Source of the DNA: an uncultured Alphaproteobacteria bacterium
GTDB taxonomy: Bacteria; Pseudomonadota; Alphaproteobacteria; Methylaequorales; Methylaequoraceae
Length of the DNA: 64,000 nucleotides
Direction: 5' to 3'
Assembly: GCA_902526865.1 (NCBI GenBank)
Contig: CABZMK010000001.1
Location: 45,768-109,767, forward strand
Shown: positions 15,382 to 40,740 of the stretch, in pieces
Numbering within the stretch: position 1 is the stretch's first letter
Layout of the letters: every line of letters starts with the position of its first letter
Made by a program: the position numbers and the translations under genes
The notes under the pieces: model-generated
What the model saw: the letters and a program-made list of their open reading frames with translations, nothing else
The model's database searches: none
Told to the model about the DNA's origin: nothing

Positions 15382-15397
15382 TGGCAATATTTTTGCT
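15382..15397 (+). promoter_or_regulatory. Sigma54 (-24/-12) promoter TGGCAA-N5-TTGCT
   Basis: GG-N10-GC spacing with TGGCA and TTGC flanks, immediately upstream of the second activator gene. Confidence 0.6.
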
Positions 15398-15430
15398 TTT
15401 AGATTGAAAACGAAAATAAAGGATTTAAAT

Positions 15431-16588
15431 ATGAAGGAAATATTTATTATTAAAGATTGTTTTGAAGTACACAATGATATACGCGATTTTTTTAGTAAAA
15501 AAGGAAAGGAAATAAAATTAATTGATTCTGATGAAATCAGCGAAATTAAAAGCTCTCAATCCATACTGATTATTGATAAAAAATTCGAAAACAAACAAGG
15601 TGGTAAATCAAATATTCTTAAAGTTGCTAGAAATATAGGTTCTACAAAGTTAATAGTTTTGGATTCAGGAAATGATTGTAGTTATGATTTAAAAAAAGAA
15701 ATGGGCGGAGCTTACATTCAAATTTCTTTCAAAATTATTGATGAGGTTATAAAAGAAATTATTTTTCAAATTATATCTAAGGAAAAGTACAGTTTCTCTG
15801 ATAAGAAAACACTTTCTTTAATAAACATGGTTGAAAAAGTTTCGAAAACTGATGTTACAGTATTCATTCATGGGCCAACCGGAACTGGAAAAGAAGTTAT
15901 TTCAAATCTTATTCATAAAAAGTCGGATAGACATGAAAAGCCTTTTATTGCGATTAATTGTGCTGCAATTCCAGAAAATATGCTTGAAGCAATGTTATTT
16001 GGACATGAAAAAGGCGCTTTTACAGGAGCTTCTTCTGCCAATAAAGGAATTTTTCGAGCTGCGGATAATGGCACACTACTTCTTGATGAAGTATCTGAAA
16101 TGCCGCTGTCCCTCCAAGCAAAACTTCTCAGGGTTCTCCAAGAAAAAAAAGTTACTCCCATTGGCGGACAAAGAGATATTGATGTAAATGTAAGAGTAAT
16201 TGCAACAACGAATAGAGATATGTTAGACGAAGTAAGAGAAAAAAAATTTAGAGAGGATTTATATTATAGACTTAATGTATTCCCAATAGAAACACATAAT
16301 TTATCTGAAAGACCTGATGATATTTTACCAATAAGTATTGCTCTGTTGAATAGACACACAGAAAACAGCCCCTTACCTTACATCAATAAAGATGCTCAAA
16401 AATTATTAAGAGAGTATAGTTGGCCTGGAAATGTTAGAGAGTTAGAAAATGTTCTACAAAGAGCCATAGTTCTTTGTGAAAAAAATATTATTGAGGGTAA
16501 AGACATAATGATAGATGTGTCAAAACAAAGTAATTTTTATAATAACATTCAAGAAAATTTATCAGAAAAAAAATTGATGCAAGCTTAA
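15431..16588 (+). CDS. Sigma54-dependent activator lacking an obvious C-terminal DNA-binding domain, with REC-like N-domain (FleT-like)
   Basis: AAA+ sigma54-interaction domain ([18 protein letters not shown]); no HTH after the AAA+ domain. ATG at 15431 has SD AAGGA; the ORF-track TTG at 15404 would precede the predicted transcription start. Confidence 0.75.
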   Translation: MKEIFIIKDCFEVHNDIRDFFSKKGKEIKLIDSDEISEIKSSQSILIIDKKFENKQGGKSNILKVARNIGSTKLIVLDSGNDCSYDLKKEMGGAYIQISFKIIDEVIKEIIFQIISKEKYSFSDKKTLSLINMVEKVSKTDVTVFIHGPTGTGKEVISNLIHKKSDRHEKPFIAINCAAIPENMLEAMLFGHEKGAFTGASSANKGIFRAADNGTLLLDEVSEMPLSLQAKLLRVLQEKKVTPIGGQRDIDVNVRVIATTNRDMLDEVREKKFREDLYYRLNVFPIETHNLSERPDDILPISIALLNRHTENSPLPYINKDAQKLLREYSWPGNVRELENVLQRAIVLCEKNIIEGKDIMIDVSKQSNFYNNIQENLSEKKLMQA

Positions 16589-16604
16589 TTTTGAAGGAGA
16601 AATC

Positions 16605-16943
16605 ATGAAACCAAATCTTACTAATTTAAAACCAACAGTGACTACACCGAACAATCTAAATGAAATAAAAAAAGTTCAAGAAGAGGTTGCAAATCTGTCT
16701 CCAAAAATAATGGAACCACAAGATGGTGGTTTTTTGGATAATATTAAGTCAGCGATTCAAGAGGTTTCTGATACTCAGAAACAAAGCGCTGAATTAACGA
16801 AAAACTTTGAGCTTGGTATAGAGAACGATCTAACCAAAGTTATGATTCAACAACAATTGTCCAGTTTAGGTTTTCAAATGACTTTAAACGTAAGAAATAA
16901 AGTCTTGAGCGCATATAAAGACATTATGAATATGCCTGTTTAA
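16605..16943 (+). CDS. fliE: Flagellar hook-basal body protein FliE
   Basis: 112 aa; C-terminus ...VRNKVLSAYKDIMNMPV matches the FliE signature; position before fliF. Confidence 0.75.
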   Translation: MKPNLTNLKPTVTTPNNLNEIKKVQEEVANLSPKIMEPQDGGFLDNIKSAIQEVSDTQKQSAELTKNFELGIENDLTKVMIQQQLSSLGFQMTLNVRNKVLSAYKDIMNMPV

Positions 16944-16960
16944 ATTAAAAGGAAAAAATT

Positions 16961-18685
16961 ATGGCTGAAGAAATTCAAACTACTGAAGTAACAAAAAATT
17001 CAATATCAAATCAAGGAATGCTATCAAATATAAGCAACTCTTTAGAAAAAATTAAAAAATTTTCTAATGAACCTGCTGTCCAAAGATCTATCCCAGTTAT
17101 GATAACCTTATTTGTTATTTTTCTTGGTTTAGTTTTTTTTATATCTTTCAAGGAACCACCTAGAACAAGTTTATTTGCATCATTACCTGAACATGAGAAA
17201 TCTAGAGTAATTGATGTTTTAAGGTCTAATGGTATTGATGTTTCAATTGACAGAACTACAGGTGAAATTTTAGTTCCATCACCAGAATATTATGAAGCAA
17301 AAATGAAGCTTGCCGCAGAGGGTTTGCCGAGTTCAGTTCCTCAGGGCTATGATATTCTTGAAAAAATCCCAATGGGAACAAGCAGATCAGTTGAATTTAT
17401 GAAAATGAAACAGACACAAGAAATAGAGCTTGCCAGATCGATAAATGAAATATCTAACATTATTGGTGCAAGGGTACATCTAGCAATTCCTGAAAAATCT
17501 GTTTTTGTCAGAGACTCCTCTCCGCCCACTGCATCTGTATTTGTAAAACTAGCTGATGGAAGAGCTTTAGGATTAGAGCAAATTAGATCAATTGTTCATA
17601 TAGTATCATCATCAATTCCTAATATGACTTCCGACAACGTAACAGTTGTAGATCAATATGGTTCGTTATTATCAAAACCAGAGGATGACCCCAATTTAGC
17701 GATGACAGAGAAACAATTATCTCATAGAGTAAAAATTGAATCTATATACAGAGAAAGAATTTTATCATTAGTTTCTCCAATCGTTGGTGCAGGTAATTTA
17801 ACAGCACAAGTAAATGTTGAAATGGATTTTACAAGCAATCAAACAACAGAAGAAATTTTTGATCCAGAGAGCATTTCAACTAGAAGTGAACAAAATAGTC
17901 AAGACGAATCCACTGATAGACCAGCAAGAGGTATTCCTGGTGCTGTAGCTAACCAAGCACCTCTAGCTGCTGATTTACAGGTTGCAGCTCCTGAAATTGG
18001 GGAGTCAGCAGAATTCAAGCAAAGATCATCCAGTAATGTTAAAAACTATGAAGTTAGTAAAAAACTTAGTACAACCGTTGGTCAAATTGGAAAAATTAAG
18101 AAAGTTAAGACGGCTGTTTTAGTTAAAAACAAAATGATTGAAACTCCAGAGGGCACAGTTGTCTCTGAGCCTATAAGTGAAGAAGATAGAGAAAAAATTA
18201 CTTCTCTTGTTAAAGAAGCGGTTGGTTTCAATGAGGATAGAGAAGACACAATTGTTGTAACCAGTGGAGATTTTATCCAAGAAATGGATGTTATTACAAC
18301 AAAATGGTATGAACAATCATGGTTTCAAAATATGATTGGTCAGTTATCGACTGTTCTAATTCTTGCAATCGTAACATTCGGTGCATTAAAGCCATTGTTA
18401 AATAGAATTTTAGTTCCTTCAGCTGGAACAGCTGCAGGTCCAGGTGGTACTTCTGAAGCTGATCTTGAGGCAGAAGAAGCAGAAGATGAAGTTCAAGTTC
18501 AAGAAGGCGAATCTCTTGAAGACATAAAAGCTAAACTTAAACCAAAAAAATCAACTATTTCAGCAGATATGCTCGATACGGCCAACACTTACGACGATAA
18601 AGTTGCGGTTATAAGGATGATAGTTGGAGATGAAGCTGGAAAAGTTTCAAATGTATTCAGACAACTTATGAAAAAAGATGTATAA
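16961..18685 (+). CDS. fliF: Flagellar M-ring protein FliF
   Basis: 574 aa; N-terminal TM, YscJ/FliF domain, C-terminal TM and acidic tail; followed by fliG. Confidence 0.85.
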   Translation: MAEEIQTTEVTKNSISNQGMLSNISNSLEKIKKFSNEPAVQRSIPVMITLFVIFLGLVFFISFKEPPRTSLFASLPEHEKSRVIDVLRSNGIDVSIDRTTGEILVPSPEYYEAKMKLAAEGLPSSVPQGYDILEKIPMGTSRSVEFMKMKQTQEIELARSINEISNIIGARVHLAIPEKSVFVRDSSPPTASVFVKLADGRALGLEQIRSIVHIVSSSIPNMTSDNVTVVDQYGSLLSKPEDDPNLAMTEKQLSHRVKIESIYRERILSLVSPIVGAGNLTAQVNVEMDFTSNQTTEEIFDPESISTRSEQNSQDESTDRPARGIPGAVANQAPLAADLQVAAPEIGESAEFKQRSSSNVKNYEVSKKLSTTVGQIGKIKKVKTAVLVKNKMIETPEGTVVSEPISEEDREKITSLVKEAVGFNEDREDTIVVTSGDFIQEMDVITTKWYEQSWFQNMIGQLSTVLILAIVTFGALKPLLNRILVPSAGTAAGPGGTSEADLEAEEAEDEVQVQEGESLEDIKAKLKPKKSTISADMLDTANTYDDKVAVIRMIVGDEAGKVSNVFRQLMKKDV

Positions 18686-18709
18686 TATAAATTAATAAGG
18701 AGTACCCAA

Positions 18710-20622: not shown

Positions 20623-20646
20623 ACTTTTATTTAGAATTAAACATAA

Positions 20647-21966
20647 ATGGTTATAGCAAAAAAAATACTCCAGACTATAGATTCACATACTATAACTCAA
20701 AATAGGATCTATAAGAGTAAAACATCAAAATTTGATGGTAAAGTTGTCGAATGTGAAGCATTTCCCTCACCAATCGGCACAACATGTGAAATAGAATGTA
20801 ATGACAAAACTATAGTCACGGGAGAAATTATTGGTTTCAAAGAAAATAAAAATATTATTGCCGTTCATGAACATAATGCAAACATAATTTTAGGATCTGA
20901 AATAAGAGTCTTAAATTCATCAAATGATGTAATTGTGGGTTCTCATTTACTTGGAAGGGTTTTAGATGCTTTTGGGAATCCAATAGATGGTGGCGCAAAA
21001 ATAAATGACTCTGCAGAAACATGGCCGATTAATGGAAAACCCAATAATCCAATGTCAAAAAAACCGATAAATGAAGTGCTAGATGTTGGTATTAGAGCGA
21101 TCAATTCACTTTTTACTGTAGGAAGAGGCCAAAGGCTTGGAATTATTGCAGGTTCTGGAGTTGGAAAATCTATTTTACTTGGAATGATGACTAAGTTTAC
21201 TAACGCAGATGTTGTTGTTGTAGCACTAATCGGAGAAAGAGGAAGAGAATTAGGTAATTTTGTATCAGAGATATTGAATGACGAATCAAGAAAAAGGACT
21301 GTCACCTTAGCTGTACCAGCAGACAAATCTCCATTGTTAAGAATTAAAGGAGCAGAAAGAGCAACTTCAATCGCAGAATATTTTAGGTCTAAAGGAAAAA
21401 ACGTTTTGCTTATCATGGACTCTCTTACCAGAATAGCTCACGCTAAACGAGAGGTGGGGTTGGCACTGGGTGAACAACCTACTTCAAAAGGATACCCAAC
21501 ATCTGTAATTTCAATGATTCCAAATCTAATTGAAAGAACAGGAGCCGGTTCAAAAAATGAAGGAACTATAACAAGTTTCTATACAATACTGGCAGATTCT
21601 GATGACACGAACGACCCTGTGGTAGACACTGCTAGGGCAATATTAGACGGACATATTGTATTATCTAGAGAACTTGCACAACTTGGAATCTTTCCTGCAA
21701 TTGATTTAAATCAATCATTAAGTAGAGTAATGAATTCTATTGTTAACGAAGAACATCAAAATCAGTCTGAATTAGTAAAAAAATTATACTCCATATACCA
21801 AGAAAACAAAGATCTCATTCTTATGGGTGGATATGCCCAAGGGCAAAACCCTGAAATTGATAGTGCATTAAATAATTGGAATAAAATTTGCAACCATATA
21901 AAACAGCATTTTAAAAAAAAATCAAGTTTTGAAGACAGCATATCAAGCTTGAAGAAGATTAACTGA
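20647..21966 (+). CDS. fliI: Flagellum-specific ATP synthase FliI
   Basis: 439 aa; Walker A GSGVGKS, F1/T3SS ATPase-like core. Confidence 0.9.
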   Translation: MVIAKKILQTIDSHTITQNRIYKSKTSKFDGKVVECEAFPSPIGTTCEIECNDKTIVTGEIIGFKENKNIIAVHEHNANIILGSEIRVLNSSNDVIVGSHLLGRVLDAFGNPIDGGAKINDSAETWPINGKPNNPMSKKPINEVLDVGIRAINSLFTVGRGQRLGIIAGSGVGKSILLGMMTKFTNADVVVVALIGERGRELGNFVSEILNDESRKRTVTLAVPADKSPLLRIKGAERATSIAEYFRSKGKNVLLIMDSLTRIAHAKREVGLALGEQPTSKGYPTSVISMIPNLIERTGAGSKNEGTITSFYTILADSDDTNDPVVDTARAILDGHIVLSRELAQLGIFPAIDLNQSLSRVMNSIVNEEHQNQSELVKKLYSIYQENKDLILMGGYAQGQNPEIDSALNNWNKICNHIKQHFKKKSSFEDSISSLKKIN

Positions 21967-21970
21967 TGAC

Positions 21971-22384: not shown

Positions 22385-22387
22385 TAG

Positions 22388-22403
22388 TGGCATTATAATT
22401 GCA
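22388..22403 (+). promoter_or_regulatory. Sigma54 promoter TGGCAT-N5-TTGCA
   Basis: GG-N10-GC, excellent match, 25 bp upstream of the fliK-like ATG. Confidence 0.6.
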
Positions 22404-22427
22404 CAATTGCTTTAACAAGGGGCAGTT

Positions 22428-25802: not shown

Positions 25803-25818
25803 TGTCAGGAAATTGACA
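25803..25818. promoter_or_regulatory. 16-bp palindrome TGTCAGGAAATTGACA, candidate activator (FleQ-box-like) site about 65 bp upstream of a sigma54 promoter
   Basis: Second copy of the TGTCAGnAAAnTGACA motif; followed by a T-run and could double as a weak terminator stem after fliN. Confidence 0.5.
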
Positions 25819-25880
25819 TCTTCTTTTTTAATCAATAATTTATAAATAAAATCAACAACTTACAATAAGTGTCGTTGTTA

Positions 25881-25896
25881 CGGCAAGGTTTTTGCA
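25881..25896 (+). promoter_or_regulatory. Sigma54 promoter CGGCAA-N5-TTGCA upstream of fliO
   Basis: GG-N10-GC spacing; lies in the fliN-fliO gap. Confidence 0.55.
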
Positions 25897-28112: not shown

Positions 28113-29264
28113 ATGGCAGAAGACAAAGACGAAAGTCAAGAAAAAACCGAGGAACCAACCGCCCGAAGACTTGAAAAAGCAAAAGAGGATGGGAAAGTTC
28201 TGTCTTCAAAAGAAGCTTTTGTTTTTAGTTCAATGTTCATGGGAGTATTACTATTTTATCTAGCTCCAATGCTTTTAGACGATTTTTTAAAAATTTGTAA
28301 ATCTCTATTTTCGTTTGGGCCAGAGTTAGCCTCTGGAAAGTCTCCTCTGGAATCTGTTACTGTAGTTGTAAAATTTTTCATTCAAGTATTTTTAATTTTT
28401 TCAATACCACTATTAGTAGTAAGTGTTCTAACGCAATTTTTAATCGGTGGAATAAACTTCTCCTTAAAGTCAGTTTACTGGAAGTTTGAAAAAATGAATC
28501 CAATTAAAGGATTAAAAAGAATATTTTCACTTAAAGGATTAGTAGAGTTAGTTAAAGCTATATTGAAAGTCAGTCTTCTTGGTCTGGTAGCTTTTTATCT
28601 GATTGAAAATAATTTATCTGATTTAGTCAACTTAACAACTGCTAATATTTTTTCCGCAGTAAATAGACTTTTTTCTTTTTTTCCAGAAATAATTGCCTAT
28701 CTCCTTGTCGTTCTCGCATTCATAGCTTTTATAGATGTGGTTTACCAAAAGTATGATTATATTAAGCAACTAAGAATGTCTCATCAAGACCTCAAAGACG
28801 AATACAAAGAAACTGATGGACAACCAGAAGTCAAACAAAAAATAAGAAAACTTCAAGCCGAAGCTGCAACAAAAAGTAGAAAAGAAGCATCGTCTGTTGA
28901 TAACCTTGAAGAAGCTACTGCAATAATTACAAACCCAACACACTTTGCCGTAGCTCTGAAATATGAGGTTGGGGACGCAAAAGCTCCTACAATTATATCA
29001 AAAGGAAGAGGTAAAATTGCTGAATCTATAATTAAGAAAGGAAAAGAACTTAAGATTGGTACAATGCAAAGTCCTAAACTGGCAAGAGCAATATACTATA
29101 CATCTGAAATTGGTGATGAAATTATGAGTAAGCTTTACAATGCTGTTGCTATTGCCTTAGCATATATTTATAAAATAGATAATGGAGAAGAAATTGAGAA
29201 ACCAGAGATAGAGGTACCTGAAGATATGATTTTTGATGAGTTTGGGAGAAAAAATGATCAATAG
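28113..29264 (+). CDS. flhB: Flagellar export apparatus switch protein FlhB
   Basis: 383 aa; four TMs then cytoplasmic domain with NPTH autocleavage motif (ITNPTHFAVAL). Confidence 0.9.
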   Translation: MAEDKDESQEKTEEPTARRLEKAKEDGKVLSSKEAFVFSSMFMGVLLFYLAPMLLDDFLKICKSLFSFGPELASGKSPLESVTVVVKFFIQVFLIFSIPLLVVSVLTQFLIGGINFSLKSVYWKFEKMNPIKGLKRIFSLKGLVELVKAILKVSLLGLVAFYLIENNLSDLVNLTTANIFSAVNRLFSFFPEIIAYLLVVLAFIAFIDVVYQKYDYIKQLRMSHQDLKDEYKETDGQPEVKQKIRKLQAEAATKSRKEASSVDNLEEATAIITNPTHFAVALKYEVGDAKAPTIISKGRGKIAESIIKKGKELKIGTMQSPKLARAIYYTSEIGDEIMSKLYNAVAIALAYIYKIDNGEEIEKPEIEVPEDMIFDEFGRKNDQ

Positions 29265-29475
29265 AAATATTTCACAACTAATTGTTACTGTTGCATTTCT
29301 TTACAGCTCACTAATATGCCACTTTAAGGCTATCGAAGTGTTCGAAGAGAAAAATTTTTTGCTTGCTTTATTTCTTTGGTTTTGTGCTTTAACTTCTTTT
29401 TGTGGTGCGTTAAGATTCCAAATTGCAAAACTATATTATAAAATAAGAGATCTAACAAAAAATGAACCAAAATAA
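29233..29475 (+). CDS. Small membrane protein (80 aa), translationally coupled to flhB
   Basis: Two hydrophobic helices; overlaps the flhB 3' end; no homology recognised. Confidence 0.35.
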   Translation: MMSLGEKMINRNISQLIVTVAFLYSSLICHFKAIEVFEEKNFLLALFLWFCALTSFCGALRFQIAKLYYKIRDLTKNEPK

Positions 29476-29662
29476 CTGTAATAACTGCACGCACTTTTAT
29501 GTGACCCACAAGAAAAACTTTCCTTATGGTTGTAAAGCATTTGGTGTAATTTCAAAAAATAATCCATATTTAGAAATAAAGAAAGTTTCTGGCACAGATT
29601 GTGCACTATTTCAAAAAAAACAAAAAAGTGTTAAAACATTTAATAAAGGAAGAATTGCATGA
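29462..29662 (+). CDS. Cys4 mini-protein (66 aa), possible zinc ribbon
   Basis: CNNC...C...C spacing (Cys 6, 9, 24, 47); overlaps neighbouring ORFs by stop/start. Confidence 0.35.
   Translation: MNQNNCNNCTHFYVTHKKNFPYGCKAFGVISKNNPYLEIKKVSGTDCALFQKKQKSVKTFNKGRIA
29590..29605 (+). promoter_or_regulatory. Sigma54 promoter-like element TGGCAC-N5-GTGCA inside the Cys4 ORF
   Basis: Perfect -24 TGGCAC and GG-N10-GC spacing, about 55 bp upstream of the coiled-coil gene start. Confidence 0.4.
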
Positions 29663-30384
29663 CACAACAACTTAATGCAATGCAAGAAAGCATAAAAATA
29701 GCTTTGGATGCGGCCGACGCAGCCACTGATGTGACCTCAGAATATAAAAGAATTAAAAACGAATATTTAAAGACGGAGCAAAAAATGAAAGAAATTCACA
29801 AATATACAACAATCATTTTTTCAAGTTCAATTGCCACAGCTGTAATAGCAATTATTTTAACAGGATTATTATATTTTAAATCACTTTCAGAACTTGAAGA
29901 TATGACAAGTACTAGTCGAGAAGCTCTAGTTGTATTTGCTGAAAATGTTGAAAATGTTAACAAAGCTGTAGATAATATGAATCAAAGTTTGGCTAGACAT
30001 ACTGATCTATTAAATGCTAGTGACGAGATGAAAGTTAAACTTGAAGAACTTTCAAACGCAATTAATTCAAATGATAAAAAACTTATGCTAAATTTATCAA
30101 AGGAAATATCAAACCTATCATCCGGGCTTTCTAAATCAATTAAAAACGAGGCAGACAAACTCAATAAGTCAATTCAAGAGTCAGGTGTAGTCACCTCCGC
30201 TAGTGTTAACAAAGAAATTGGTAAACTGTTGAAAGATAATAAGAAGAATCAAAATGTTAAACTTTTAAAAGAACTTTCTAATAGCACCTCTTCATTAAAT
30301 GCAGCACTCGAAGCGATTTCTAGCCAAAATAAACAGTTAGTTAAGGAAATAACAGATCAAAAAGAAAGCATAACTTTCCCATAA
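29659..30384 (+). CDS. Membrane-anchored coiled-coil protein (241 aa)
   Basis: One TM (IIFSSSIATAVIAIILTGLLYF) followed by long heptad-rich domain; unknown function. Confidence 0.45.
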   Translation: MTQQLNAMQESIKIALDAADAATDVTSEYKRIKNEYLKTEQKMKEIHKYTTIIFSSSIATAVIAIILTGLLYFKSLSELEDMTSTSREALVVFAENVENVNKAVDNMNQSLARHTDLLNASDEMKVKLEELSNAINSNDKKLMLNLSKEISNLSSGLSKSIKNEADKLNKSIQESGVVTSASVNKEIGKLLKDNKKNQNVKLLKELSNSTSSLNAALEAISSQNKQLVKEITDQKESITFP

Positions 30385-30391
30385 TAATATT

Positions 30392-31192
30392 ATGTCTGAA
30401 ACAAAAGAAGGAAATTTTTTCTTAAAAATTAATAAAATAAATGGTGGAAGTCATGCAGCAAATAATTTCTTAAAGCCAGACGATATAATTGTTGCACTTG
30501 ATAATCAGATTTATACTTTCGGTGAAAAACAACTAACTTCTGATTTAAAAGAATTAAAAAAAAGTAATCAAAAGTCTATGCTCACAGTTTTAAGAGAGGA
30601 TATATTTTTTAATTTGTTAATAGAAAATAGTTTAGGTTGCAAATTTACCACAACTACAGCTGAGGAAACCAATAAAATTAAATCTGATTATTTATCACAA
30701 GAAGTAAATGATCTTGACGAATTAAAAGAATTTATTGGAATGAGAGACGTTTACAGAAACTACGAAGTCATTGAAAATGCTAATTCTTTATCAGCAGGCA
30801 TTTTTCCCCCACTTTGGTTAGCTTATTCACAAAAATGGTGGCTTTTGTTTCTATTTACAGCAATTATGGCAGTATCCTTATCAGTTAATATTTATGTTTT
30901 TTTCTTGGGGTGGTTACTAACTTCAATTTACTGTTATAAAGCCCAATTAAACCTTCTCTTCAGCTTTTCCATGCTAGAGGGAAAAGTTTTTTGTGTAAAA
31001 TTGTTGTCTAAATCAATTGATGAGGCTCAAAAAACCATAAGAAAGCTTGACCCAAAATCCAAATTTAAATTTTCAAAACTACCAAAACCACTTGTAGAAG
31101 AGGTTGAAAAAGATAAAAAAGACGACAACGTTAACAAAAAAGACAGTAATAAAGAAAACATTGTTGATGAAAATCAGACAGTAATAGTATAA
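30392..31192 (+). CDS. Membrane protein with N-terminal PDZ-like segment and DUF2628-like TM region
   Basis: INKINGGSHAANNFLKPDDIIVALDNQ resembles the PDZ ligand-binding region; FPPLWLAYSQKWWLLFLF resembles the DUF2628 motif; Lys-rich tail. Confidence 0.4.
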   Translation: MSETKEGNFFLKINKINGGSHAANNFLKPDDIIVALDNQIYTFGEKQLTSDLKELKKSNQKSMLTVLREDIFFNLLIENSLGCKFTTTTAEETNKIKSDYLSQEVNDLDELKEFIGMRDVYRNYEVIENANSLSAGIFPPLWLAYSQKWWLLFLFTAIMAVSLSVNIYVFFLGWLLTSIYCYKAQLNLLFSFSMLEGKVFCVKLLSKSIDEAQKTIRKLDPKSKFKFSKLPKPLVEEVEKDKKDDNVNKKDSNKENIVDENQTVIV

Positions 31193-31201
31193 ACTATACA
31201 T

Positions 31202-31801
31202 ATGGTAGCTGATAAATATACAATCCAAGCTGAAACTTTAATGAAGGCAGCGATTGAGGAATATACTGAAGTAATTCAAGAAGTGAAGTCATCTGATGCT
31301 AATTTAACGACGCTTAAAGGCATCAGAATCAATATTCAAGGCAAACCAAGACGATTGGTGGATGTCGGAGATATAAAAAAAACTGAAAACGAAAATGTTG
31401 TTCAAATTTTAGTTTTCAACACAGATCATATACCTCTATTAACTGAAAAAATCGATGAAGTTGAGTTCAATTACGAAGTTGATGGACAATTCATTAACAT
31501 TGATCTGCCAGAACCCAGTTATAAACAATTAATGGAAGTTGTCGACGATCTAAATAGAAAGAAAAATTCTGGTTTAGCCAGACTGACTAAGGCTAAATCC
31601 GAAGCAACCACAAGGGCAAGAACAGCACTCGAAAATGATTTCATTACTCAGGGTGTTGCTAATGCAGTTTCCAGGAAATGTTCAGAAATGCACGAGCTAT
31701 ATTCGTCTAAAGTCAACGAACTTACAATTGAGAAGATAAAGGAAATTCTTGGTAACGAATATTTTGAAAAATATAAAAACGAAGAACTTGAATATGAGTG
31801 A
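31202..31801 (+). CDS. Divergent ribosome recycling factor (RRF/Frr)-like protein
   Basis: 199 aa. Pattern alignment to RRF: (IQGKPRRL vs YYGTPTPL), (ILVFNTDHIPLLTEKI vs INVFDRSMSPAVEKAI), (INIDLPEPSYKQL...ARLTKAKSEATTRARTALEND vs IRVPLPPLTEERRKDL...ARVAVRNVRRDANDK). Confidence 0.35.
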   Translation: MVADKYTIQAETLMKAAIEEYTEVIQEVKSSDANLTTLKGIRINIQGKPRRLVDVGDIKKTENENVVQILVFNTDHIPLLTEKIDEVEFNYEVDGQFINIDLPEPSYKQLMEVVDDLNRKKNSGLARLTKAKSEATTRARTALENDFITQGVANAVSRKCSEMHELYSSKVNELTIEKIKEILGNEYFEKYKNEELEYE

Positions 31802-33911: not shown

Positions 33912-33921
33912 GATTTAAACT

Positions 33922-34695: not shown

Positions 34696-34733
34696 TTATT
34701 TTTCCATTTGCAATTAATATATAATTAATATTT

Positions 34734-34749
34734 TGGTATAGATTCTGCA
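34734..34749 (+). promoter_or_regulatory. Sigma54 promoter-like element (plus strand: TGGTAT-N5-CTGCA) sharing its -12 TGCA with the motA promoter
   Basis: GG-N10-GC on the plus strand; about 60 bp upstream of the DUF1566 gene. Confidence 0.4.
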
Positions 34750-34762
34750 ACTTTAATACCAA
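34746..34762 (-). promoter_or_regulatory. Sigma54 promoter (minus strand: TGGTAT-N5-TTGCA) upstream of motA
   Basis: GG-N10-GC on the minus strand; about 50 bp upstream of the motA ATG. Confidence 0.5.
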
Positions 34763-34810
34763 AATAGAAAATATTTTTATTAATCTACATAATTATTGTA
34801 ATATACAGAT

Positions 34811-35284: not shown

Positions 35285-35499
35285 TCTTTCTGATTAAAAT
35301 GCTCAATTAATTTAAATAAAAATAGACAAATACCAGCTACAAAAATTAATATTGCCGCATTCCAAGGTGTTACAAACGAAAGATAGCCTAAATTGTCCTT
35401 AAAAGTCAGTGAAATAATAATCAACAGCAGAACAAATGCTAAAAAAAATCTTATGTAGGAACATATTCTACAGTTTTTCATCTTTTTAAAATCAAACAA
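35281..35499 (-). CDS. Small hydrophobic protein (72 aa), uncertain
   Basis: Two predicted TM helices; overlaps neighbours; may be spurious. Confidence 0.25.
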   Translation of the reverse strand: MFDFKKMKNCRICSYIRFFLAFVLLLIIISLTFKDNLGYLSFVTPWNAAILIFVAGICLFLFKLIEHFNQKD

Positions 35500-36068: not shown

Positions 36069-36247
36069 TAAGAATATAATAGATTATATCCTCAAATAAG
36101 CCAGTATATATGAAGATAAATAAGAGTTTTGTTAATTTCTTTTTTTATTATTATGAGTGTCAAGTATCTGACTTAATAAAAGTGTCAAATTAAAGTTTTG
36201 CATTTCTTAGCAAAAAATTGTGAAATAATATTGAAAGGAAAAGAATT

Positions 36248-37708
36248 ATGCAAATTTCTCAGAATCTCAAATTAAAACAGAGTCAATCTTTAGTTATGAC
36301 TCCTCAGTTACAGCAAGCAATAAAATTACTCCAGTTGAATAATTTAGAATTAACAAATCTAGTTAATAAAGAGCTTGAAGAAAATCCTTTTTTAGAGAAT
36401 GAAAACGATGAATTGGATAATCAAAACGATCAAGACACAGAAAAAACGAATGAGTTAGATGAATCTTTTGAAAATGGCGAATCAATTTCAGATGAACCTT
36501 GTAATGATGATTTTGAAAATAGATGGGATAATGATGCGACTTTTGAATTTAATAGTAAACATTCATCCACTGACAGTGTTGATGTTGGAAGCGTAATAGA
36601 GCAGACACTTAGCAATAAAGTTTCTTTAAAATCTATATTAAGTAATCAAGCAGATTTAGAATTCAATGACGATGATGATAAGAAAATTGCAGAAATATTA
36701 ATTGACTACGTTGACGAAAATGGTTGGATCACTGAAAGTTTAGAAGACATTGAGGAATTTAGTGGATTTAACTTTAAACAAATTGAAAAAGTTTTAGAAA
36801 GAATGCAATGTTTTGAGCCAAATGGGGTATTTGCTAGAAATCTGAAAGAATGTCTCAAAATTCAACTTATTAATGAAAACAACTTGGATTCAAAGAAAGA
36901 AATTATTATCGAAAATATTGATTTACTTGGAAGTGGAAATATTAAAGGACTTCAAAAACTAACAGGACTAAAAGAAGAAAAGCTAAAAGACGAAATAAGG
37001 CTTATTAGAGCTCTAAACCCAAAACCAGGAAGCAAGTATTCAACAGATAATGACAATATCTTCCATCCAGATGTAATTGTAACAAAAAATAATTCTGATT
37101 GGGCAGTGGAATTAAATCATGGCACACTTCCGAAAATTAATATTAATAATGACTATGTCAAAGAAATAGAAAGACTTCAATGTGGAGAATCGGATAAAAA
37201 ATTTATAAATGAATCTTTAAATTCTGCAAGATGGTTGCTTAAAGCAATCCAACAACGAAACGTTACAACACTAAAAATTAGTTCCGAAATTGTTAATCAA
37301 CAAAAGGAATTTTTCGAAAAGGGAAAAAAATATCTAAAACCAATGGTTCTTAAAGATGTTGCAAAAAAAATTAATATGCATGAGAGCACAGTTAGTAGAG
37401 TCACATCAGACAAATTAATGCTAACACCAAGAGGTGTTTTAGAAATGAAACTATTTTTTAGTGCTTCGATAAGTAGTACCAAGAAAGGTGAGACTCATTC
37501 AGCAGAGTCAGTAAGAGAATCACTTAAAAAATTAATTAGCAGTGAACCCTTAAACAACCCATTGAGTGATGAAATGTTGGTAGAAAAACTTCAAGATGAA
37601 GGTATTGATTTAGCTAGAAGAACAGTTGCAAAATATAGGGAGTTGCTTAATATACCAGCCTCTTCGGTTAGAAGAAAAATTATGAAAATTCAAAATATGA
37701 ATATTTAG
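36248..37708 (+). CDS. rpoN: RNA polymerase sigma-54 factor RpoN
   Basis: 486 aa; N-terminal region I (LKQSQSLVMTPQLQQAIKLLQLNNLEL), acidic region II, C-terminal RpoN box (ARRTVAKYRE). Confidence 0.92.
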   Translation: MQISQNLKLKQSQSLVMTPQLQQAIKLLQLNNLELTNLVNKELEENPFLENENDELDNQNDQDTEKTNELDESFENGESISDEPCNDDFENRWDNDATFEFNSKHSSTDSVDVGSVIEQTLSNKVSLKSILSNQADLEFNDDDDKKIAEILIDYVDENGWITESLEDIEEFSGFNFKQIEKVLERMQCFEPNGVFARNLKECLKIQLINENNLDSKKEIIIENIDLLGSGNIKGLQKLTGLKEEKLKDEIRLIRALNPKPGSKYSTDNDNIFHPDVIVTKNNSDWAVELNHGTLPKININNDYVKEIERLQCGESDKKFINESLNSARWLLKAIQQRNVTTLKISSEIVNQQKEFFEKGKKYLKPMVLKDVAKKINMHESTVSRVTSDKLMLTPRGVLEMKLFFSASISSTKKGETHSAESVRESLKKLISSEPLNNPLSDEMLVEKLQDEGIDLARRTVAKYRELLNIPASSVRRKIMKIQNMNI

Positions 37709-37813
37709 TTTCATTAAAATTAATTTTGTAGATTTTATATTTTTACTAATAATTTAATAAATATTAACAAAAATAAAATTAAGATTTCGTCTATGCAGAA
37801 CCAATTTTATTTT

Positions 37814-37984
37814 TCAGGAATATACAATACTTTTAATTTCTCTAGAAGATCTATCCAAGAAATGCGAAACTGGATAAACATCAGTTTTAACACATTTGTC
37901 ATTGTCAAAATGAGTAATTTTTATAACTGGATAAGAATTAGGGATGTTACCATTAATTTCGTCTGATCTAATATATTTGTTCAT
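37814..37984 (-). CDS. Unannotated small ORF (56 aa) with strong Shine-Dalgarno
   Basis: ATG preceded by AAGGAGAAAAAA on the minus strand; below the 60-aa ORF-track cutoff; sequence MNKYIRSDEINGNIPNSYPVIKITHFDNDKCVKTDVYPVSHFLDRSSREIKSIVYS. Confidence 0.35.
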   Translation of the reverse strand: MNKYIRSDEINGNIPNSYPVIKITHFDNDKCVKTDVYPVSHFLDRSSREIKSIVYS

Positions 37985-38035
37985 TTTTTTCTCCTTGTTG
38001 AATTAAATGTGCAAATACTTTGCCAAAGTCATAAG

Positions 38036-38641
38036 TTAAATATTTTCTTTTTTTAAAATTTCTCTAAAAAATTTTATTTTGGCTTTTTCATCTCGTTTGT
38101 TGTAGCTATTTTTAATAACTATTTTTCGTTGTCTTAAATCATTCCAATAAGTATAGACTTTTTTAAGATAGTTCTTCTTTCTTTTTGGAATTGATGAATG
38201 ATATCTTGAAACTGCTTCGTTCCATGATTTATATTTTTTATAAAGTTTAAGCAGATAAATTGCCGCATATTTAACGTTTTCTTCAGGCTCGACTAAATGA
38301 GACAAATCTTTAAAATTTTTTAAATGATATTTTGTGTTAATTTGCATGCAACCCACATCGATACTTTTTTTTAAATCTATATTACTTTTTAAATATTCTA
38401 TCGTTTCCGACTTATTATCAAAGTACATTGATTTGCCTGAAACATTGAGTGTCCATGGCCATGACTTAAATTCACTTTTTTTGATGCCTGACTCTACAAG
38501 TGCAATAGAAGTTAACAATTTATTAGGAAGATTATAAATTTTTCCATACTTTTCAGTTAAGTAATTACAATTATCTAATTCTTTTGATTCAAGAAATGTA
38601 AATGTTAAGAAGCATAATAAAACAGCTAAAAATAATTTCAT
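38036..38641 (-). CDS. Lytic transglycosylase (SLT-domain, secreted)
   Basis: 201 aa; signal peptide; SLT catalytic region (ALVESGIKK...WPWTLNVSG...GCMQIN). Confidence 0.7.
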   Translation of the reverse strand: MKLFLAVLLCFLTFTFLESKELDNCNYLTEKYGKIYNLPNKLLTSIALVESGIKKSEFKSWPWTLNVSGKSMYFDNKSETIEYLKSNIDLKKSIDVGCMQINTKYHLKNFKDLSHLVEPEENVKYAAIYLLKLYKKYKSWNEAVSRYHSSIPKRKKNYLKKVYTYWNDLRQRKIVIKNSYNKRDEKAKIKFFREILKKENI

Positions 38642-38677
38642 AACTGTTATTCAGCAATTTGAGTGCCAAACTTTAGT

Positions 38678-40057
38678 TTATTTTTTAATTATTGAGCTAC
38701 TCAGTAGATCGCGTCCTACTGAAATAAAATCGTACGGGTTTACCGATTTACCATTCACTTTTATTTCATAATGAAGATGTGCGCCTACAGCTCTTCCTGT
38801 TGATCCCATTTTTCCAATTACTTCTCCCTCTGTGACACTCATTCCTTTTTTTACGTTCAATCTATGAAGATGTCCATACAATGTAGACACACCATGTTTA
38901 TGGACTATTTTAATTGTTTTACCAAAAGACCCATTTCTTCCTGAAAAAGAAACATATCCGTCAGCTGGTGCCCTGACCTCTTCTTGCCAAGTGCCAGCCA
39001 TATCAATTCCATGATGCATTTGCTTTCTTTTGCTTTTAGGATGAATTCTAAAGCCATAAGGACTAGACACATAGTAATATTGCATAGGTGGTTTTAAAGG
39101 TACGTAAATAATTGCATCTTTAAGATCTTGCAAAATTTGAAACCTGAGTGAAGTATGGTCCAACAAATCCTCGTTATCCTCGCTTACATTTATATTTTCA
39201 GCAAGCAAATTGTTTATCCTATGAATATCAAGTTTATCTGGATGAAGTTTCAATTGTTCAAAAACACTTAAAAGTTGGAAAATTTCAGTATCAATTTTCT
39301 TAGTAAAATTAATTATTTTCAGTTTTTTTGTTCTTGGAGCAACAAACGGTATCACAGGTAGCTTCCTATATGCAAATGATTCTATTTTGTCTTTGGAGGG
39401 TTTTGTTAAATCAGTCTTGTTCTTAAAGGCATGTTCAATTGCAACCATTTCCGGACTAGCAAGTTTGGAAAATTGTTCAAATTTGATTTCATCTGAATAA
39501 TTCACGTCATTAGGGAAACTAAGCTTTATGTTTCGCATCATACTTTTTAAATTTAATAATTTGTCCCTTAATTGATTTTGTAATTCATTTTGAATATTAT
39601 TGGTGTCAGTAAATTCGTCTTGTTGTTTTATTACTATTTCTGCTTTTTCAGAGTTAATTTCATGCTCGGATATATTTTTACCTTTTGCAATACTTTTTAA
39701 TGCTCTAATTTCCGATTCTGTAAAACTTTGTTCATTAATAATTGTATTTTTGTAGACCATGTAAGAAAAAAAAGACGAAACACCAACAAATAAAAGTTGA
39801 AGTATCTTGAAGATTAAAACAAGAAAAATGGCAACAGCTGACAGATAGTGTTTGATATTAAATACAACTTCTATAGGGCCTTTTTTCGTAAAATAAAGAA
39901 ATCTTCTTTCTTTGAGAATAAGTCTAAGGTTTTTTGAAAAAACACTTAAGTTTTTCGAAAAAATACTTGTTTCTCCAAACCTAGTACTTGATTTTAGATT
40001 TTTTAAAATGTCAGATTTGAACACACTTATGGAATTTTTTTTTGATAAATTTTCCAT
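38678..40057 (-). CDS. M23-family metallopeptidase (LytM-like) with N-terminal TM and long coiled/linker region
   Basis: 459 aa; C-terminal M23 motifs (HHGIDMAG, HLHYEI). Confidence 0.75.
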   Translation of the reverse strand: MENLSKKNSISVFKSDILKNLKSSTRFGETSIFSKNLSVFSKNLRLILKERRFLYFTKKGPIEVVFNIKHYLSAVAIFLVLIFKILQLLFVGVSSFFSYMVYKNTIINEQSFTESEIRALKSIAKGKNISEHEINSEKAEIVIKQQDEFTDTNNIQNELQNQLRDKLLNLKSMMRNIKLSFPNDVNYSDEIKFEQFSKLASPEMVAIEHAFKNKTDLTKPSKDKIESFAYRKLPVIPFVAPRTKKLKIINFTKKIDTEIFQLLSVFEQLKLHPDKLDIHRINNLLAENINVSEDNEDLLDHTSLRFQILQDLKDAIIYVPLKPPMQYYYVSSPYGFRIHPKSKRKQMHHGIDMAGTWQEEVRAPADGYVSFSGRNGSFGKTIKIVHKHGVSTLYGHLHRLNVKKGMSVTEGEVIGKMGSTGRAVGAHLHYEIKVNGKSVNPYDFISVGRDLLSSSIIKK

Positions 40058-40061
40058 TAAA

Positions 40062-40604
40062 TTATTTTAGGTATAGAACAACTACCAACATCATGTTGGT
40101 TAATAGTTGCATTAACATAATTAGCAACATAAGTTTCCATGAAATTGGATTACTAACATTTAAGCTAAACTGAGGGAATGGTTGTTTTTCGTCAAACTTT
40201 ACCGATTGTTTTTTTTCATCAACAACTCTATCATTTTGGTAACTATCATAGGTTTTATAATTTTGCTTTGCTTCAAAGTTCCTTCGTTTTTCAAATTCTA
40301 TTTTTTCAGTAATATCCGGTTCTTCAACTTCTTTTCGTTTAAGGTTTTGTACTTCAGAATCTACTGCTAATTTTTCTTTACTATCAAATCTAATATTTTC
40401 TTTATTGGTTGCTTCAGGTTTGTTTTTATCTATTTTTTTTTCTAAATTTTCTACATTAATGTTCGCAGCCTTATCGCTTGATACAGATTCAACGCTTTTT
40501 TTTTCAACTTTTATCTCTGTAGAAGAAACTTTAGAAGCCGGAACAGTCATCTGATTTCTCATTTTTTCTATTCTATCTCTTATATCAATTACTGGTTCGG
40601 TCAT
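40062..40604 (-). CDS. Hypothetical tail-anchored charged protein (180 aa), first gene of the sigma54-driven PG-hydrolase operon
   Basis: K/E-rich, C-terminal TM (LMLLIMLMQLLTNMMLVVVLYL). Confidence 0.4.
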   Translation of the reverse strand: MTEPVIDIRDRIEKMRNQMTVPASKVSSTEIKVEKKSVESVSSDKAANINVENLEKKIDKNKPEATNKENIRFDSKEKLAVDSEVQNLKRKEVEEPDITEKIEFEKRRNFEAKQNYKTYDSYQNDRVVDEKKQSVKFDEKQPFPQFSLNVSNPISWKLMLLIMLMQLLTNMMLVVVLYLK

Positions 40605-40645
40605 ATAGAGTTAACTTACAATAAAATTTGTTAAAAGTAAATTTA

Positions 40646-40661
40646 TGCATTTAGTAAGCCA
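40646..40661 (-). promoter_or_regulatory. Sigma54 promoter (minus strand TGGCTT-N5-ATGCA) for the orf180-M23-SLT operon
   Basis: GG-N10-GC on the minus strand, about 40 bp upstream of the orf180 start. Confidence 0.5.
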
Positions 40662-40724
40662 AAATATAAATAATAAAACTTTTTTTTTAATTTTTTTTAT
40701 GATAAGCATAAAATTAATACAAAT

Positions 40725-40740
40725 TGGCAAAATTATTGCA
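40725..40740 (+). promoter_or_regulatory. Sigma54 promoter TGGCAA-N5-TTGCA for the bactofilin operon
   Basis: GG-N10-GC, near-consensus; 12 bp upstream of the first bactofilin ATG. Confidence 0.55.

Follow-up and report, generated by a model that had tools for sequence, protein, structure and literature searches.

A flagellar locus of a marine alphaproteobacterium divided by sigma-54-type promoters into a probable FleQ/FleT-like regulon

Introduction

In the FleQ/FlrA and FleR/FlrC cascades of Pseudomonas and Vibrio, control starts with a master enhancer-binding protein, and a second activator follows. At sigma-54 promoters such as nifH, glnHp2 and the class III flagellar promoters of Caulobacter, the succession of enhancer, IHF site and promoter is a classic layout. 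In the Fla1 system of R. (Cereibacter) sphaeroides, FleQ and RpoN2 drive fleT-fliEFGHIJ, and FleQ together with FleT drives the class III genes, motAB included; FleT of this organism has no DNA-binding domain, and rpoN2 lies within the flagellar locus (PMC7277832, PMC11999139). For the module of bactofilin and M23 peptidase, the authors of PMC10945521 speculate that its expression might be regulated, tuning cell curvature for motility.

Here we analyse 64,000 nt from an uncultured marine alphaproteobacterium (assembly GCA_902526865.1, contig CABZMK010000001.1, 45,768-109,767 of the forward strand), referred to as the window, of which 15.2-40.8 kb is the motility locus under study. We propose, with a probability of roughly 85%, that -24/-12 promoters of the sigma-54 (RpoN) type split this locus into units that form one regulon of the FleQ/FleT kind. 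At least nine promoters of the form TTGG(C/T)A-N6-(T/A)TGC(A/T) are well supported, preceding fleT, fliK, fliO, a coiled-coil gene, motA, a 56-aa gene, the SLT gene, orf180-M23 and the bactofilin genes. A further candidate, the tenth, faces a DUF1566 gene and is doubtful. This type of regulation is already known, and sequence comparison gives good support to regarding the locus as a fresh instance within the FleQ/FleT-RpoN flagellar hierarchy. Through sigma-54-type promoters, genes for the cell wall and for cell shape are here also linked to flagellum building.

Results

An earlier note on this DNA had listed eight sigma-54-type motifs and had argued that they are significant because GG and GC are rare in such sequence. 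All eight motifs are present, the motA element starting at 34761, one base from the 34762 given before. The argument from rarity does not hold, as bare GG-N10-GC occurs 144 times in the 64-kb window against 76 expected and is by itself not diagnostic. The note was right that near-consensus elements exceed chance: the window contains five exact copies of TGGCA-N6-TTGC where 0.24 are expected, and five were reached in none of 100 shuffles. Scanning was performed with an approximate position weight matrix (PWM) modelled on the published consensus, on which the pattern counts do not depend. Eight matches of at least 14 bits were found, with 1.46 expected under a first-order Markov model. Six of the eight are fully intergenic, although just 5.8% of positions are (Fisher p ~1e-6). 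Besides being enriched in intergenic DNA, they face start codons.

At a threshold of 11.5 bits, nine matches fall into the 1196 nt of intergenic DNA of the locus and none into the 3085 nt of intergenic DNA outside it. Every intergenic region of the locus that precedes a gene start, the two at the regulator genes excepted, has a best match of 12.6-16.4 bits; outside the locus the best score is 9.0 bits or less in each. Three sites depart from TGGCA, namely motA and DUF1566 with TGGTA and orf180 with TGGCT...ATGC. Some further good PWM matches were rejected as coding artefacts; for example, the one at 38985-39000 on the minus strand belongs to the M23 catalytic motif M-A-G-T-W-Q and has a spacer glycine codon that varies among relatives, and the one at 5755 on the plus strand lies within a purF-like gene.

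Conservation was followed in a set of 94 related loci drawn from genomes and metagenomes, the number covering each site differing. In this set, a site at the same position is retained upstream of fleT, fliK, fliO, the coiled-coil gene, motA and orf180. Orthologues were scored gene by gene for a match of 11 bits or more in the 150 nt preceding the gene. The share that has one is 1.00 for fleT, fliK, fliO, motA, o56 (the 56-aa gene), slt and orf180, and reaches 0.96 for the coiled-coil gene. About 30 other genes give 0.00-0.19, a bimodal distribution in which DUF1566 (0.78) and bacA (0.58) are intermediate. A site upstream of fliJ that is embedded in coding sequence, with a share of 0.94, is kept apart from the promoter tally. 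Over the ten promoters, GG and TTGC are invariant, aside from the loss of the DUF1566 GG in locus L011, and spacer positions are variable in four to eight of the ten. This conserved core with a variable spacer is seen over lineages of 29 to 53% GC; in distant loci of 45-53% GC the same four promoter positions recur.

Table 1. Positions, in window coordinates, of predicted promoters, putative control sites and regulator genes of the motility locus
Feature	Coordinates	Strand	Sequence	Remarks
FleQ-like enhancer-binding protein	14175..15239	-		AAA+ sigma-54 interaction domain (GAFTGA), C-terminal HTH_8
fleT palindrome, putative enhancer	15270..15285		TGTCAGAAAACTGACA	
IHF-like site, fleT palindrome-to-promoter interval	15327..15339	-	TATCAATTACTTA	matches WATCAANNNNTTR
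fleT-fliEFGHIJ promoter	15382..15397	+	TGGCAATATTTTTGCT	exact consensus
FleT-like enhancer-binding protein	15431..16588	+		AAA+ domain with GAFTGA; first gene of fliE-J unit
fliKLMN promoter	22388..22403	+	TGGCATTATAATTGCA	exact consensus
fliO palindrome, putative enhancer	25803..25818		TGTCAGGAAATTGACA	63 nt upstream of fliO promoter
IHF-like site, fliO palindrome-to-promoter interval	25850..25862	+	AATCAACAACTTA	
fliOPQR-flhB-o80-o66 promoter	25881..25896	+	CGGCAAGGTTTTTGCA	16.4 bits
Internal promoter, inside small CxxC gene o66	29590..29605	+	TGGCACAGATTGTGCA	17.5 bits, top PWM match
DUF1566 (Lcl_C) candidate promoter	34734..34749	+	TGGTATAGATTCTGCA	12.6 bits; weakest of set
motA-motB-orf307 promoter	34746..34761	-	TGGTATTAAAGTTGCA	11.9 bits
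GTCA-N6-TGAC palindrome upstream of rpoN	36159..36172			conserved in 11/11 sequences
rpoN (sigma-54)	36248..37708	+		activator-interacting, core-binding and DNA-binding domains; Pfam E-values 1e-17 to 1e-61
56-aa gene (o56)	37814..37984	-		AAGGAG ribosome-binding site
56-aa gene promoter	38010..38025	-	TGGCAAAGTATTTGCA	exact consensus
SLT promoter, between M23 and SLT genes	38653..38668	-	TGGCACTCAAATTGCT	exact consensus, 17.4 bits
orf180-M23 promoter	40646..40661	-	TGGCTTACTAAATGCA	11.6 bits
Promoter of three bactofilin genes	40725..40740	+	TGGCAAAATTATTGCA	exact consensus

The fleT promoter is retained with a variable spacer in 9/9 related loci, including a distant lineage whose FleT is 47-49% identical. 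The fleT ATG lies at 15431, and the predicted leader of ~23 nt carries an AAGGA ribosome-binding site; an alternative start of this reading frame is TTG 15404. The fliK promoter begins 4 nt past the fliJ stop codon, and its predicted leader, ~14 nt long, opens with the ribosome-binding site; all five alignable relatives retain this promoter, and distant loci have it at the same place. Conservation of the fliO promoter extends to 11/11 relatives, the version of locus L063 being TGGCACGGTTCTTGCC. Transcription from the internal promoter would cover the coiled-coil gene (29659), orf266 and an RRF-like gene. In the codon alignment of 23 distinct orthologues this site reads xxT GGC Ayn nnn TGT GCA/T, and its GGC codon is fixed in 23/23 although only 10% of Gly codons are GGC. 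Synonymous sites nearby vary freely, and the constraint falls exactly on the core positions.

The transcription-unit map of the earlier note is well supported in its division of the locus by sigma-54 promoters and needs four corrections, at SLT, the 56-aa unit, DUF1566 and the bactofilins. The note had treated orf180-M23-SLT as one unit. This is not a single simple unit, since SLT carries its own promoter, previously overlooked and retained in 12/12 relatives with a variable spacer. As the first base of the SLT ATG (38641) lies 13 nt beyond the C of GC, the SLT mRNA is predicted to be leaderless; the promoter-to-start spacing projected by tblastn is as in the window in 7/12 relatives and scatters over 0-24 in the others, where start calls are imprecise. 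Likewise overlooked were the 56-aa gene and its promoter, the latter being present, with a variable spacer, in every locus covering the position. The encoded protein is conserved in relatives and found no match in a comparison with Pfam and NCBIfam; the gene makes up a tenth unit and is an additional member of the predicted regulon.

The orf180 promoter is retained in 12/12 relatives with GG and TGCA invariant and the spacer variable. The bactofilin promoter named in the earlier note is of exact consensus here, but only 7/12 related loci have it, and in a group of 70% identity it is missing as an indel of ~30 nt; it therefore appears to be a lineage-specific addition. Its mRNA, too, is predicted to be leaderless, because the ATG (40752) lies at that same distance, 13 nt, past the C of GC. 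In the literature searched, no link between bactofilins and RpoN was found. The promoter previously assigned to DUF1566 is present and retained in 7/9 relatives, but L011 has lost the GG and L005 has a degraded version. This site is the mirror half of the motA element, the central TGCA being common to both. The motA 16-mer is identical in 11/11 relatives while its intergenic flanks vary; this invariance, spacer included, suggests an extra constraint beyond the sigma-54 footprint.

Sigma-54 promoters might be limited to the consensus-grade sites (fleT, fliK, fliO, internal, o56, slt and bacA), with an incidental resemblance at motA, DUF1566 and orf180. TGGTAT-N6-TGCA-N6-ATACCA between motA and DUF1566 would, on this reading, serve a dimeric transcription factor as operator, and TGGCT...ATGCA before orf180 might be something else too. 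The motA/DUF1566 element is indeed a 28-bp palindrome, with T replacing C after GG in both halves and a spacer that is invariant in the motA half, which is unusual for sigma-54; a sigma-70-like -10 (TAATAT) lies in a conserved block directly before the DUF1566 ATG, and the three sites score just 11.6-12.6 bits, a range shared with chance coding matches. However, GG and GC are retained at the exact 10-bp spacing in 11/11 relatives at motA and 12/12 at orf180, the orf180 spacer varies as sigma-54 would predict, and the sites are the sole matches of at least 11.5 bits in their own intergenic regions, whereas regions outside the locus stay at or below 9.0 bits. The Klebsiella nifH promoter, moreover, is of the TGGTAT...CTGCA type. 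For R. sphaeroides, the model places motAB among the sigma-54 class III genes (PMC7277832). We consider this restriction unlikely and favour a regulon that includes all nine promoters. That the motifs are chance AT-rich matches or coding by-products devoid of promoter function is far less probable still and already largely refuted: GG-N10-GC is common (144 matches), some good PWM matches are plainly coding artefacts and the 29590 site sits within a conserved small ORF, but the counts of the strict motif and of PWM matches exceed expectation 5- to 20-fold, the matches are enriched in intergenic DNA and point at start codons, orthologues of 29 to 53% GC lineages keep the core and vary the spacer, and synonymous constraint at 29590 coincides with the core.

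The window also encodes candidate regulators. The RpoN box ARRTVAKYR can be read in the rpoN translation. The FleQ-like protein is 354 aa long; its AAA+ domain begins at residue 7, and there is no N-terminal regulatory domain. The domain search of the FleT-like protein identified neither a DNA-binding domain (HTH) nor a recognisable receiver domain; GAFTGA occurs in both sigma-54 activators and HTH_8 in just one. The architecture of the FleT-like protein matches that described for FleT in PMC11999139. The within-window statistics, the conservation in relatives and the presence of rpoN and two GAFTGA activators in the window together support the central idea, and with it the earlier claim of one sigma-54 regulon.

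Upstream of the fleT and fliO promoters, TGTCA-N6-TGACA is conserved. Exact GTCA-N6-TGAC was found three times in the window against 0.43 expected, and all three copies are intergenic and conserved. In close as well as distant relatives the fleT palindrome is conserved; the fleT promoter follows it after ~97 nt, and it lies ~31 nt upstream of the start codon of the activator itself. The fliO half-sites are recognisable in 10/10 aligned sequences, with single-base departures in L023, L035 and L037. The third copy is a putative binding site of the same activator, in an intergenic region upstream of rpoN that contains no sigma-54 promoter (best PWM match 1.8 bits). A search of the eight palindrome-less promoters for a common enhancer found none. 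As the upstream gene is only 4-40 nt away at several promoters, any enhancer of these would have to sit in coding DNA, or there may be none.

Between palindrome and promoter, both fleT and fliO have a candidate IHF site. The fleT copy falls within a block conserved in relatives, and at fliO the core TCAAT.ACTTA is conserved. These sites are suggestive only, and the motif is not enriched over the window (14 found, 14.65 expected).

Discussion

We propose that the FleQ-like protein binds TGTCA-N6-TGACA upstream of the fleT and fliO promoters and that a bend at the IHF-like site may bring it into contact with the closed complex of sigma-54 holoenzyme, which would be opened by its ATP hydrolysis. 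This would turn on a first tier of the earliest assembly genes (MS ring, rotor and export gate) plus fleT. FleT might then join FleQ, and the mixed oligomer would activate the palindrome-less promoters, with fliK-N, the cassette after flhB, the stator genes motAB, the cell-wall enzymes and the bactofilins as targets. The two-tier order in this model is taken over from R. sphaeroides. Feedback on both regulator genes is suggested by the palindrome ~31 nt from the activator start and by the copy upstream of rpoN.

The locus resembles the Fla1 system of R. sphaeroides in having an rpoN copy inside the flagellar locus, a DNA-binding activator plus a second one without a DNA-binding domain that heads fleT-fliEFGHIJ, and sigma-54 promoters before fleT, motAB and later genes. 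It differs in its AT-rich (29% GC) host, in the FleQ-like protein lacking an N-terminal domain, in the position of motAB within the locus and in a predicted regulon that includes the bactofilin trio, the M23 peptidase, SLT, DUF1566 and small genes. Sigma-54 promoters at early and middle flagellar genes (fliE-J, fliK-N and the export apparatus) are a feature in common with Pseudomonas and Vibrio, in line with the overall theme of PMC3162934. The second activator of those bacteria is a DNA-binding response regulator, whereas in the FleT-like protein neither receiver domain nor HTH is recognised.

In keeping with the enhancer-IHF-promoter layout, the fleT palindrome precedes its -24 element by ~97 nt and the fliO palindrome by 63 nt (about -130 and -97 from the predicted start), with an WATCAANNNNTTR-like site between palindrome and -24/-12; unlike in the classic cases, only two of ten promoters show this arrangement. 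Finally, the bactofilin genes adjoin an M23 peptidase gene as in the BacA-LmdC module of Hyphomonas and Rhodospirillum, a likeness at the level of M23, and BacA starts with MFSR..., resembling the Caulobacter membrane-targeting peptide MFSKQAKS. Unlike that module, the genes described here comprise three bactofilin paralogues, are transcribed divergently from two sigma-54-type promoters and lie beside rpoN and flagellar genes.

Gene content of the motility locus

The gene content of the window (29% GC) matches the description in the earlier note. Two activator genes lie at the start of the motility locus, and only the 354-aa protein carries an HTH_8 domain, which is absent from the 385/394-aa protein. 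NCBIfam returned generic sigma-54 activator matches only for both proteins, all under the curated cut-offs. Directly 3′ of the FleT-like gene and on the same strand follow fliEFGHIJ, then fliKLMN, fliOPQR-flhB and a conserved cassette of small or unknown genes. Other genes of the locus are motAB-orf307 (-), a DUF1566/Lcl_C gene, an SLT gene (slt) with an M23 peptidase gene and orf180 (-), and three bactofilin genes. The rpoN gene is placed between motAB and the SLT/M23/bactofilin units, an arrangement that is syntenic in the related loci spanning the region.

The cassette 3′ of flhB comprises an 80-aa ORF (o80), a 66-aa CxxC...GC...C protein (o66), a 241-aa coiled-coil protein, orf266 and a ribosome-recycling-factor-like protein. 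It is syntenic across close-family loci; of its genes, only o66, orf266 and the one for the coiled-coil protein were detected in the distant loci (45-53% GC). Pfam and NCBIfam gave no significant match for o56 (a conserved 56-aa gene), o66, o80, the coiled-coil protein, orf266, orf307 or orf180, apart from one marginal orf266 match far under the cut-off. Rfam and tRNA scans of the window found no known RNA, and sigma-70 and terminator scans stayed at background level and were uninformative.

The flanking genes are housekeeping genes, among them those for DnaB, MlaE, a PurF-like protein, Der, BamB and PEP carboxylase. Two of the flanking genes, at 11161-11805 (-) and 53207-54142 (-), bear DUF2659 and ELM1 domains, which are typical of Rickettsiales-like alphaproteobacteria. 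Related records are labelled as uncultured marine Alphaproteobacteria or Pelagibacteraceae, and the literature on the lineage (AEGEAN-169, HIMB59) yielded no usable statement about motility.

Regulator genes, predicted promoters and palindromes of the motility locus. The fraction is that of orthologues whose best matrix match reaches at least 11 bits.
Feature	Position	Strand	Fraction	Remarks
FleQ-like activator gene	14175-15239	-		354 aa; Sigma54_activat, E 5e-68; GAFTGA present
GTCA-N6-TGAC	15271			~97 nt upstream of fleT promoter; ~31 nt from the ATG of the FleQ-like activator gene
fleT promoter	15382		1.00	
FleT-like activator gene	15431-16588	+		385/394 aa; Sigma54_activat, E 3e-69; GAFTGA present
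fliJ candidate site	21877-21892	+	0.94	coding-embedded
fliK promoter	22388		1.00	
GTCA-N6-TGAC	25804			~63 nt upstream of fliO promoter
fliO promoter	25881		1.00	
Cassette	29233-31801	+		3′ of flhB
Coiled-coil gene promoter	29590		0.96	within o66
DUF1566 candidate promoter			0.78	
motA promoter	34761-34746	-	1.00	
GTCA-N6-TGAC	36159			upstream of rpoN
rpoN	36248-37708			Sigma54_AID, Sigma54_CBD and Sigma54_DBD matched (Pfam); RpoN box ARRTVAKYR read in translation
o56	37814-37984	-		56 aa; AAGGAG ribosome-binding site
o56 promoter	38025-38010	-	1.00	exact consensus; missed in the earlier note
slt promoter	38668-38653	-	1.00	exact consensus; between M23 and SLT genes; missed in the earlier note
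orf180 promoter			1.00	
bacA promoter to ATG	40725-40754	+	0.58	first bactofilin gene
Bactofilin genes	40752-41850			three genes
About 30 other genes			0.00-0.19	

Promoter motifs exceed chance and cluster in the motility locus

Sigma-54 promoters carry GG and GC dinucleotides 10 bp apart in a TGGCAC-N5-TTGCW-like context. Eight GG-N10-GC motifs had previously been proposed as promoters of the motility units, and all eight are present, the motA site lying one base away from the figure given for it. As a criterion, the bare GG-N10-GC pattern is not informative (144 found versus 76 expected), and we therefore used an extended motif and a position weight matrix instead. TGGCA-N6-TTGC occurs five times exactly in the window versus 0.24 expected, and 16 times versus 8.7 when up to one mismatch is allowed. 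The matrix, built for TGGCACG-N4-TTGCW, has frequencies that approximate a published compilation, and only its ranking is to be trusted.

Within the window, the comparison of intergenic with coding density that the earlier note had suggested came out in favour of its reading: eight matches reach at least 14 bits, where a first-order Markov model predicts 1.46, and six of these are fully intergenic versus 5.8% of all positions (Fisher p ~1e-6). The remaining two lie within o66 (29590) and within a purF-like gene (5755). At a threshold of at least 11.5 bits, all nine intergenic matches fall within the 1196 nt of intergenic DNA at 15.2-40.8 kb and none in the 3085 nt outside, and the best score per intergenic region is bimodal (12.6-16.4 versus at most 9.0). 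We arrive at ten sites, five with exact TGGCA-N6-TTGC and five with one or two departures; every one has GG-N10-GC followed by A or T.

The purF-like gene holds a 15.7-bit match at 5755-5770 (+), TGGCAACGCATCTGCA, with the next start codon 537 nt away. We rejected it as a promoter, as it lies inside the gene and about one such chance match is expected.

The predicted promoter core is conserved in related loci

Scanning reference genomes with RpoN retrieved 14 loci (RpoN identity 69-97%) from uncultured marine Alphaproteobacteria, most of them in single-cell genomes. A further 80 loci came from metagenomes scanned with FliI and fall into two tiers, one with FliI identity of 65% or more and the other with 55-60%; the latter includes loci of 45-53% GC. 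Gene order is kept throughout, small ORFs included. For each gene we took the best matrix match up to 150 nt upstream of the orthologous start and recorded the fraction of orthologues with at least 11 bits (see table).

Among orthologues of the ten promoters GG and TTGC are invariant, and positions 6-11 vary in four to eight of the ten. Judged on the alignments, this footprint of a kept core and a variable spacer is as expected for sigma-54 promoters. The distant, GC-richer loci possess near-perfect sites at the same four positions, namely before fleT, after fliI/J, after fliN and inside o66; in L063, one of these distant loci, the site before fliO reads TGGCACGGTTCTTGCC.

Individual predicted promoter sites

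The fleT, fliK and fliO sites are strongly supported as predicted sigma-54 promoters. The 29590 site lies within the coding sequence of o66, which is a conserved small protein, so that conservation of the site had to be distinguished from coding constraint. A codon alignment covering 23 distinct orthologues gives xxT GGC Ayn nnn TGT GCA/T for this stretch; GGC is fixed in 23/23 versus 10% of Gly codons, and nearby synonymous sites vary freely. Here the constraint falls on synonymous positions, in contrast to the high-scoring match at 38985-39000 (-) in the M23 gene, which is explained by the encoded residues. The core bases of this latter match are fixed by M-A-G-T-W-Q and a spacer Gly codon varies among relatives, and we rejected it as a promoter.

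Some 75-80 nt before fliJ, in the 3′ end of fliI, lies a further sigma-54-like site. Its counterpart in relatives is TGGCCTAAAATTTGCG, with a rare TGC Cys codon fixed in 17/17; the copy in the window, TGGAATAAAATTTGCA (TGGAAT...), is weaker and degraded at the -24 element. An internal promoter upstream of fliJ is possible.

The motA site, TGGTATTAAAGTTGCA, is identical in 11/11 loci with variable flanks. The proposed DUF1566 site is the mirror half of a 28-bp palindrome, TGGTAT-N6-TGCA-N6-ATACCA, that it forms with the motA site. Its GG is lost in locus L011 and the site is degraded in locus L005, and a conserved -10-like TAATAT stands directly before the DUF1566 ATG. We place the odds that the DUF1566 site is a sigma-54 promoter at about even. 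In the single palindrome at 34734-34761 the central TGCA would serve as a common -12 element in both directions; the whole may be either a bidirectional promoter for sigma-54 or an operator bound by some other factor.

The orf180 site, TGGCTTACTAAATGCA, is kept in 12/12 loci with a variable spacer. The bacA site matches the consensus exactly, is present in just 7/12 loci and is missing from the 70%-identity group through an indel of ~30 nt, so that its sigma-54 promoter appears to be a lineage-specific gain. A conserved A/T tract and TGATAAGCAT block at 40679-40709 are common to all 12 loci, including those without the bacA promoter. This block between orf180 and bacA (a T run, then TTTTATGATAAGCAT) resembles a Fur box core or an extended -10 element.

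Putative enhancer palindromes

Enhancers of sigma-54 promoters lie upstream, ~80-150 bp away from the start site, and an IHF bend often accompanies them. The palindrome GTCA-N6-TGAC has three exact copies in the window versus 0.43 expected, all three intergenic and conserved; that of fleT is kept in a distant lineage too. Both fleT and fliO display a conserved TGTCA-N6-TGACA upstream and a conserved match to the IHF consensus between palindrome and promoter. The IHF motif is not enriched window-wide, and the position and conservation of these two IHF-like sites are suggestive. The other eight promoters do not have the palindrome, and a search of their -250 to +120 regions for TGTCA/TGACA half-sites and 6-nt inverted repeats revealed no shared enhancer.

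Upstream of rpoN, the segment 36159-36204 has a palindrome whose half-sites are those found at fleT and fliO, together with conserved TGTCAAAT / TGTGAAAT repeats, but it lacks a sigma-54 site. Through this segment the flagellar activator may control rpoN or the divergent genes orf196-orf72.

Predicted leaderless transcripts, possible antisense transcription and the bactofilin region

Transcription from sigma-54 promoters starts ~12 nt past the GC and needs rpoN and ATP hydrolysis by the activator. The ATGs of slt (promoter to ATG, 38641-38668 (-)) and bacA both follow the C of the -12 GC by 13 nt, placing the predicted +1 at the A of the ATG or one base before, and neither gene has a ribosome-binding site. 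The same GC-to-start spacing is the commonest in relatives. SLT begins with a signal peptide, and BacA with MFSRNPDK, comparable to the membrane-targeting peptide MFSKQAKS of Caulobacter BacA; both start codons are therefore probably genuine, which would make the transcripts leaderless. Comparison of the SLT protein with solved structures gave no match, and its putative assignment as an SltF-type flagellar enzyme accordingly comes from context.

In the gap between o56 and rpoN (37709-37813) no significant terminator-like hairpin was found (fold z-score -0.59). Since none separates the o56 stop from the convergent 3′ end of rpoN, sigma-54-driven transcription could run antisense into rpoN.

The three genes with Bactofilin domains are divergent from orf180-M23. 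The 459-aa M23 protein has its M23 domain at the C-terminus and is hydrophobic around residues 73-100. The M23 partner in the BacA-LmdC module is bitopic in the membrane and binds the bactofilin through its cytoplasmic tail. Pairing of bactofilin and M23 genes is a known conserved morphogenetic module (PMC10945521). Our literature search found no link between bactofilins and RpoN.

Discussion

On the basis of these results, the proposal that the motility units belong to one sigma-54 regulon stands in substance; two promoters had been missed, the DUF1566 site is doubtful and the bacA promoter is lineage-specific. By sequence and comparative evidence, the locus is probably a member of the sigma-54 FleQ/FleT flagellar hierarchy, a known kind with some unusual details. 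We propose that the HTH-bearing activator would bind the palindrome and activate fleT-fliE-J and fliO-flhB, and thereby the earliest structures and FleT, whereupon a mixed FleQ/FleT oligomer would activate the remaining promoters. This two-step order is modelled on Rhodobacter sphaeroides Fla1 (PMC7277832; PMC11999139). More speculatively, the activator gene and rpoN may both be under feedback control, given the palindromes beside them.

A more far-reaching reading would make the locus a self-contained sigma-54 island of a streamlined marine alphaproteobacterium, with rpoN, two activators and all targets in one place, that couples flagellum assembly to remodelling of cell shape and cell wall through the bactofilin trio, the LmdC-like M23 protein and SLT. 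It would also include two unusual promoter geometries, leaderless slt and bacA mRNAs and a bidirectional palindromic motA/DUF1566 promoter sharing one -12 element, together with antisense feedback from the 56-aa gene into the 3′ end of rpoN. Taken as a whole, we consider this picture less likely than not and offer it tentatively.

The analysis provides a precise predicted transcription map for the motility locus of an abundant uncultured marine group, with ten promoters and three putative enhancer sites. It indicates that a wide range of marine lineages, from 29 to 53% GC, have kept the FleQ/FleT-RpoN design described in a single laboratory species. Genes seldom counted as flagellar, namely the bactofilin/M23 module, the lytic transglycosylase and several small proteins, are predicted to be switched on with the flagellum, which makes them candidate new factors of motility or morphogenesis. 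If confirmed, the pair of leaderless transcripts predicted from sigma-54 promoters would be unusual.

The bactofilin region resembles the BacA-LmdC module in that a bactofilin gene adjoins an M23 gene and the BacA N-terminus is similar to the membrane-targeting peptide. The likeness to the Fla1 type of R. sphaeroides extends to a presumably dedicated rpoN copy in the flagellar locus and to the pair of regulators, a master activator with a DNA-binding domain and a second activator without one, encoded by the first gene of the fliEFGHIJ unit, in agreement with PMC11999139.
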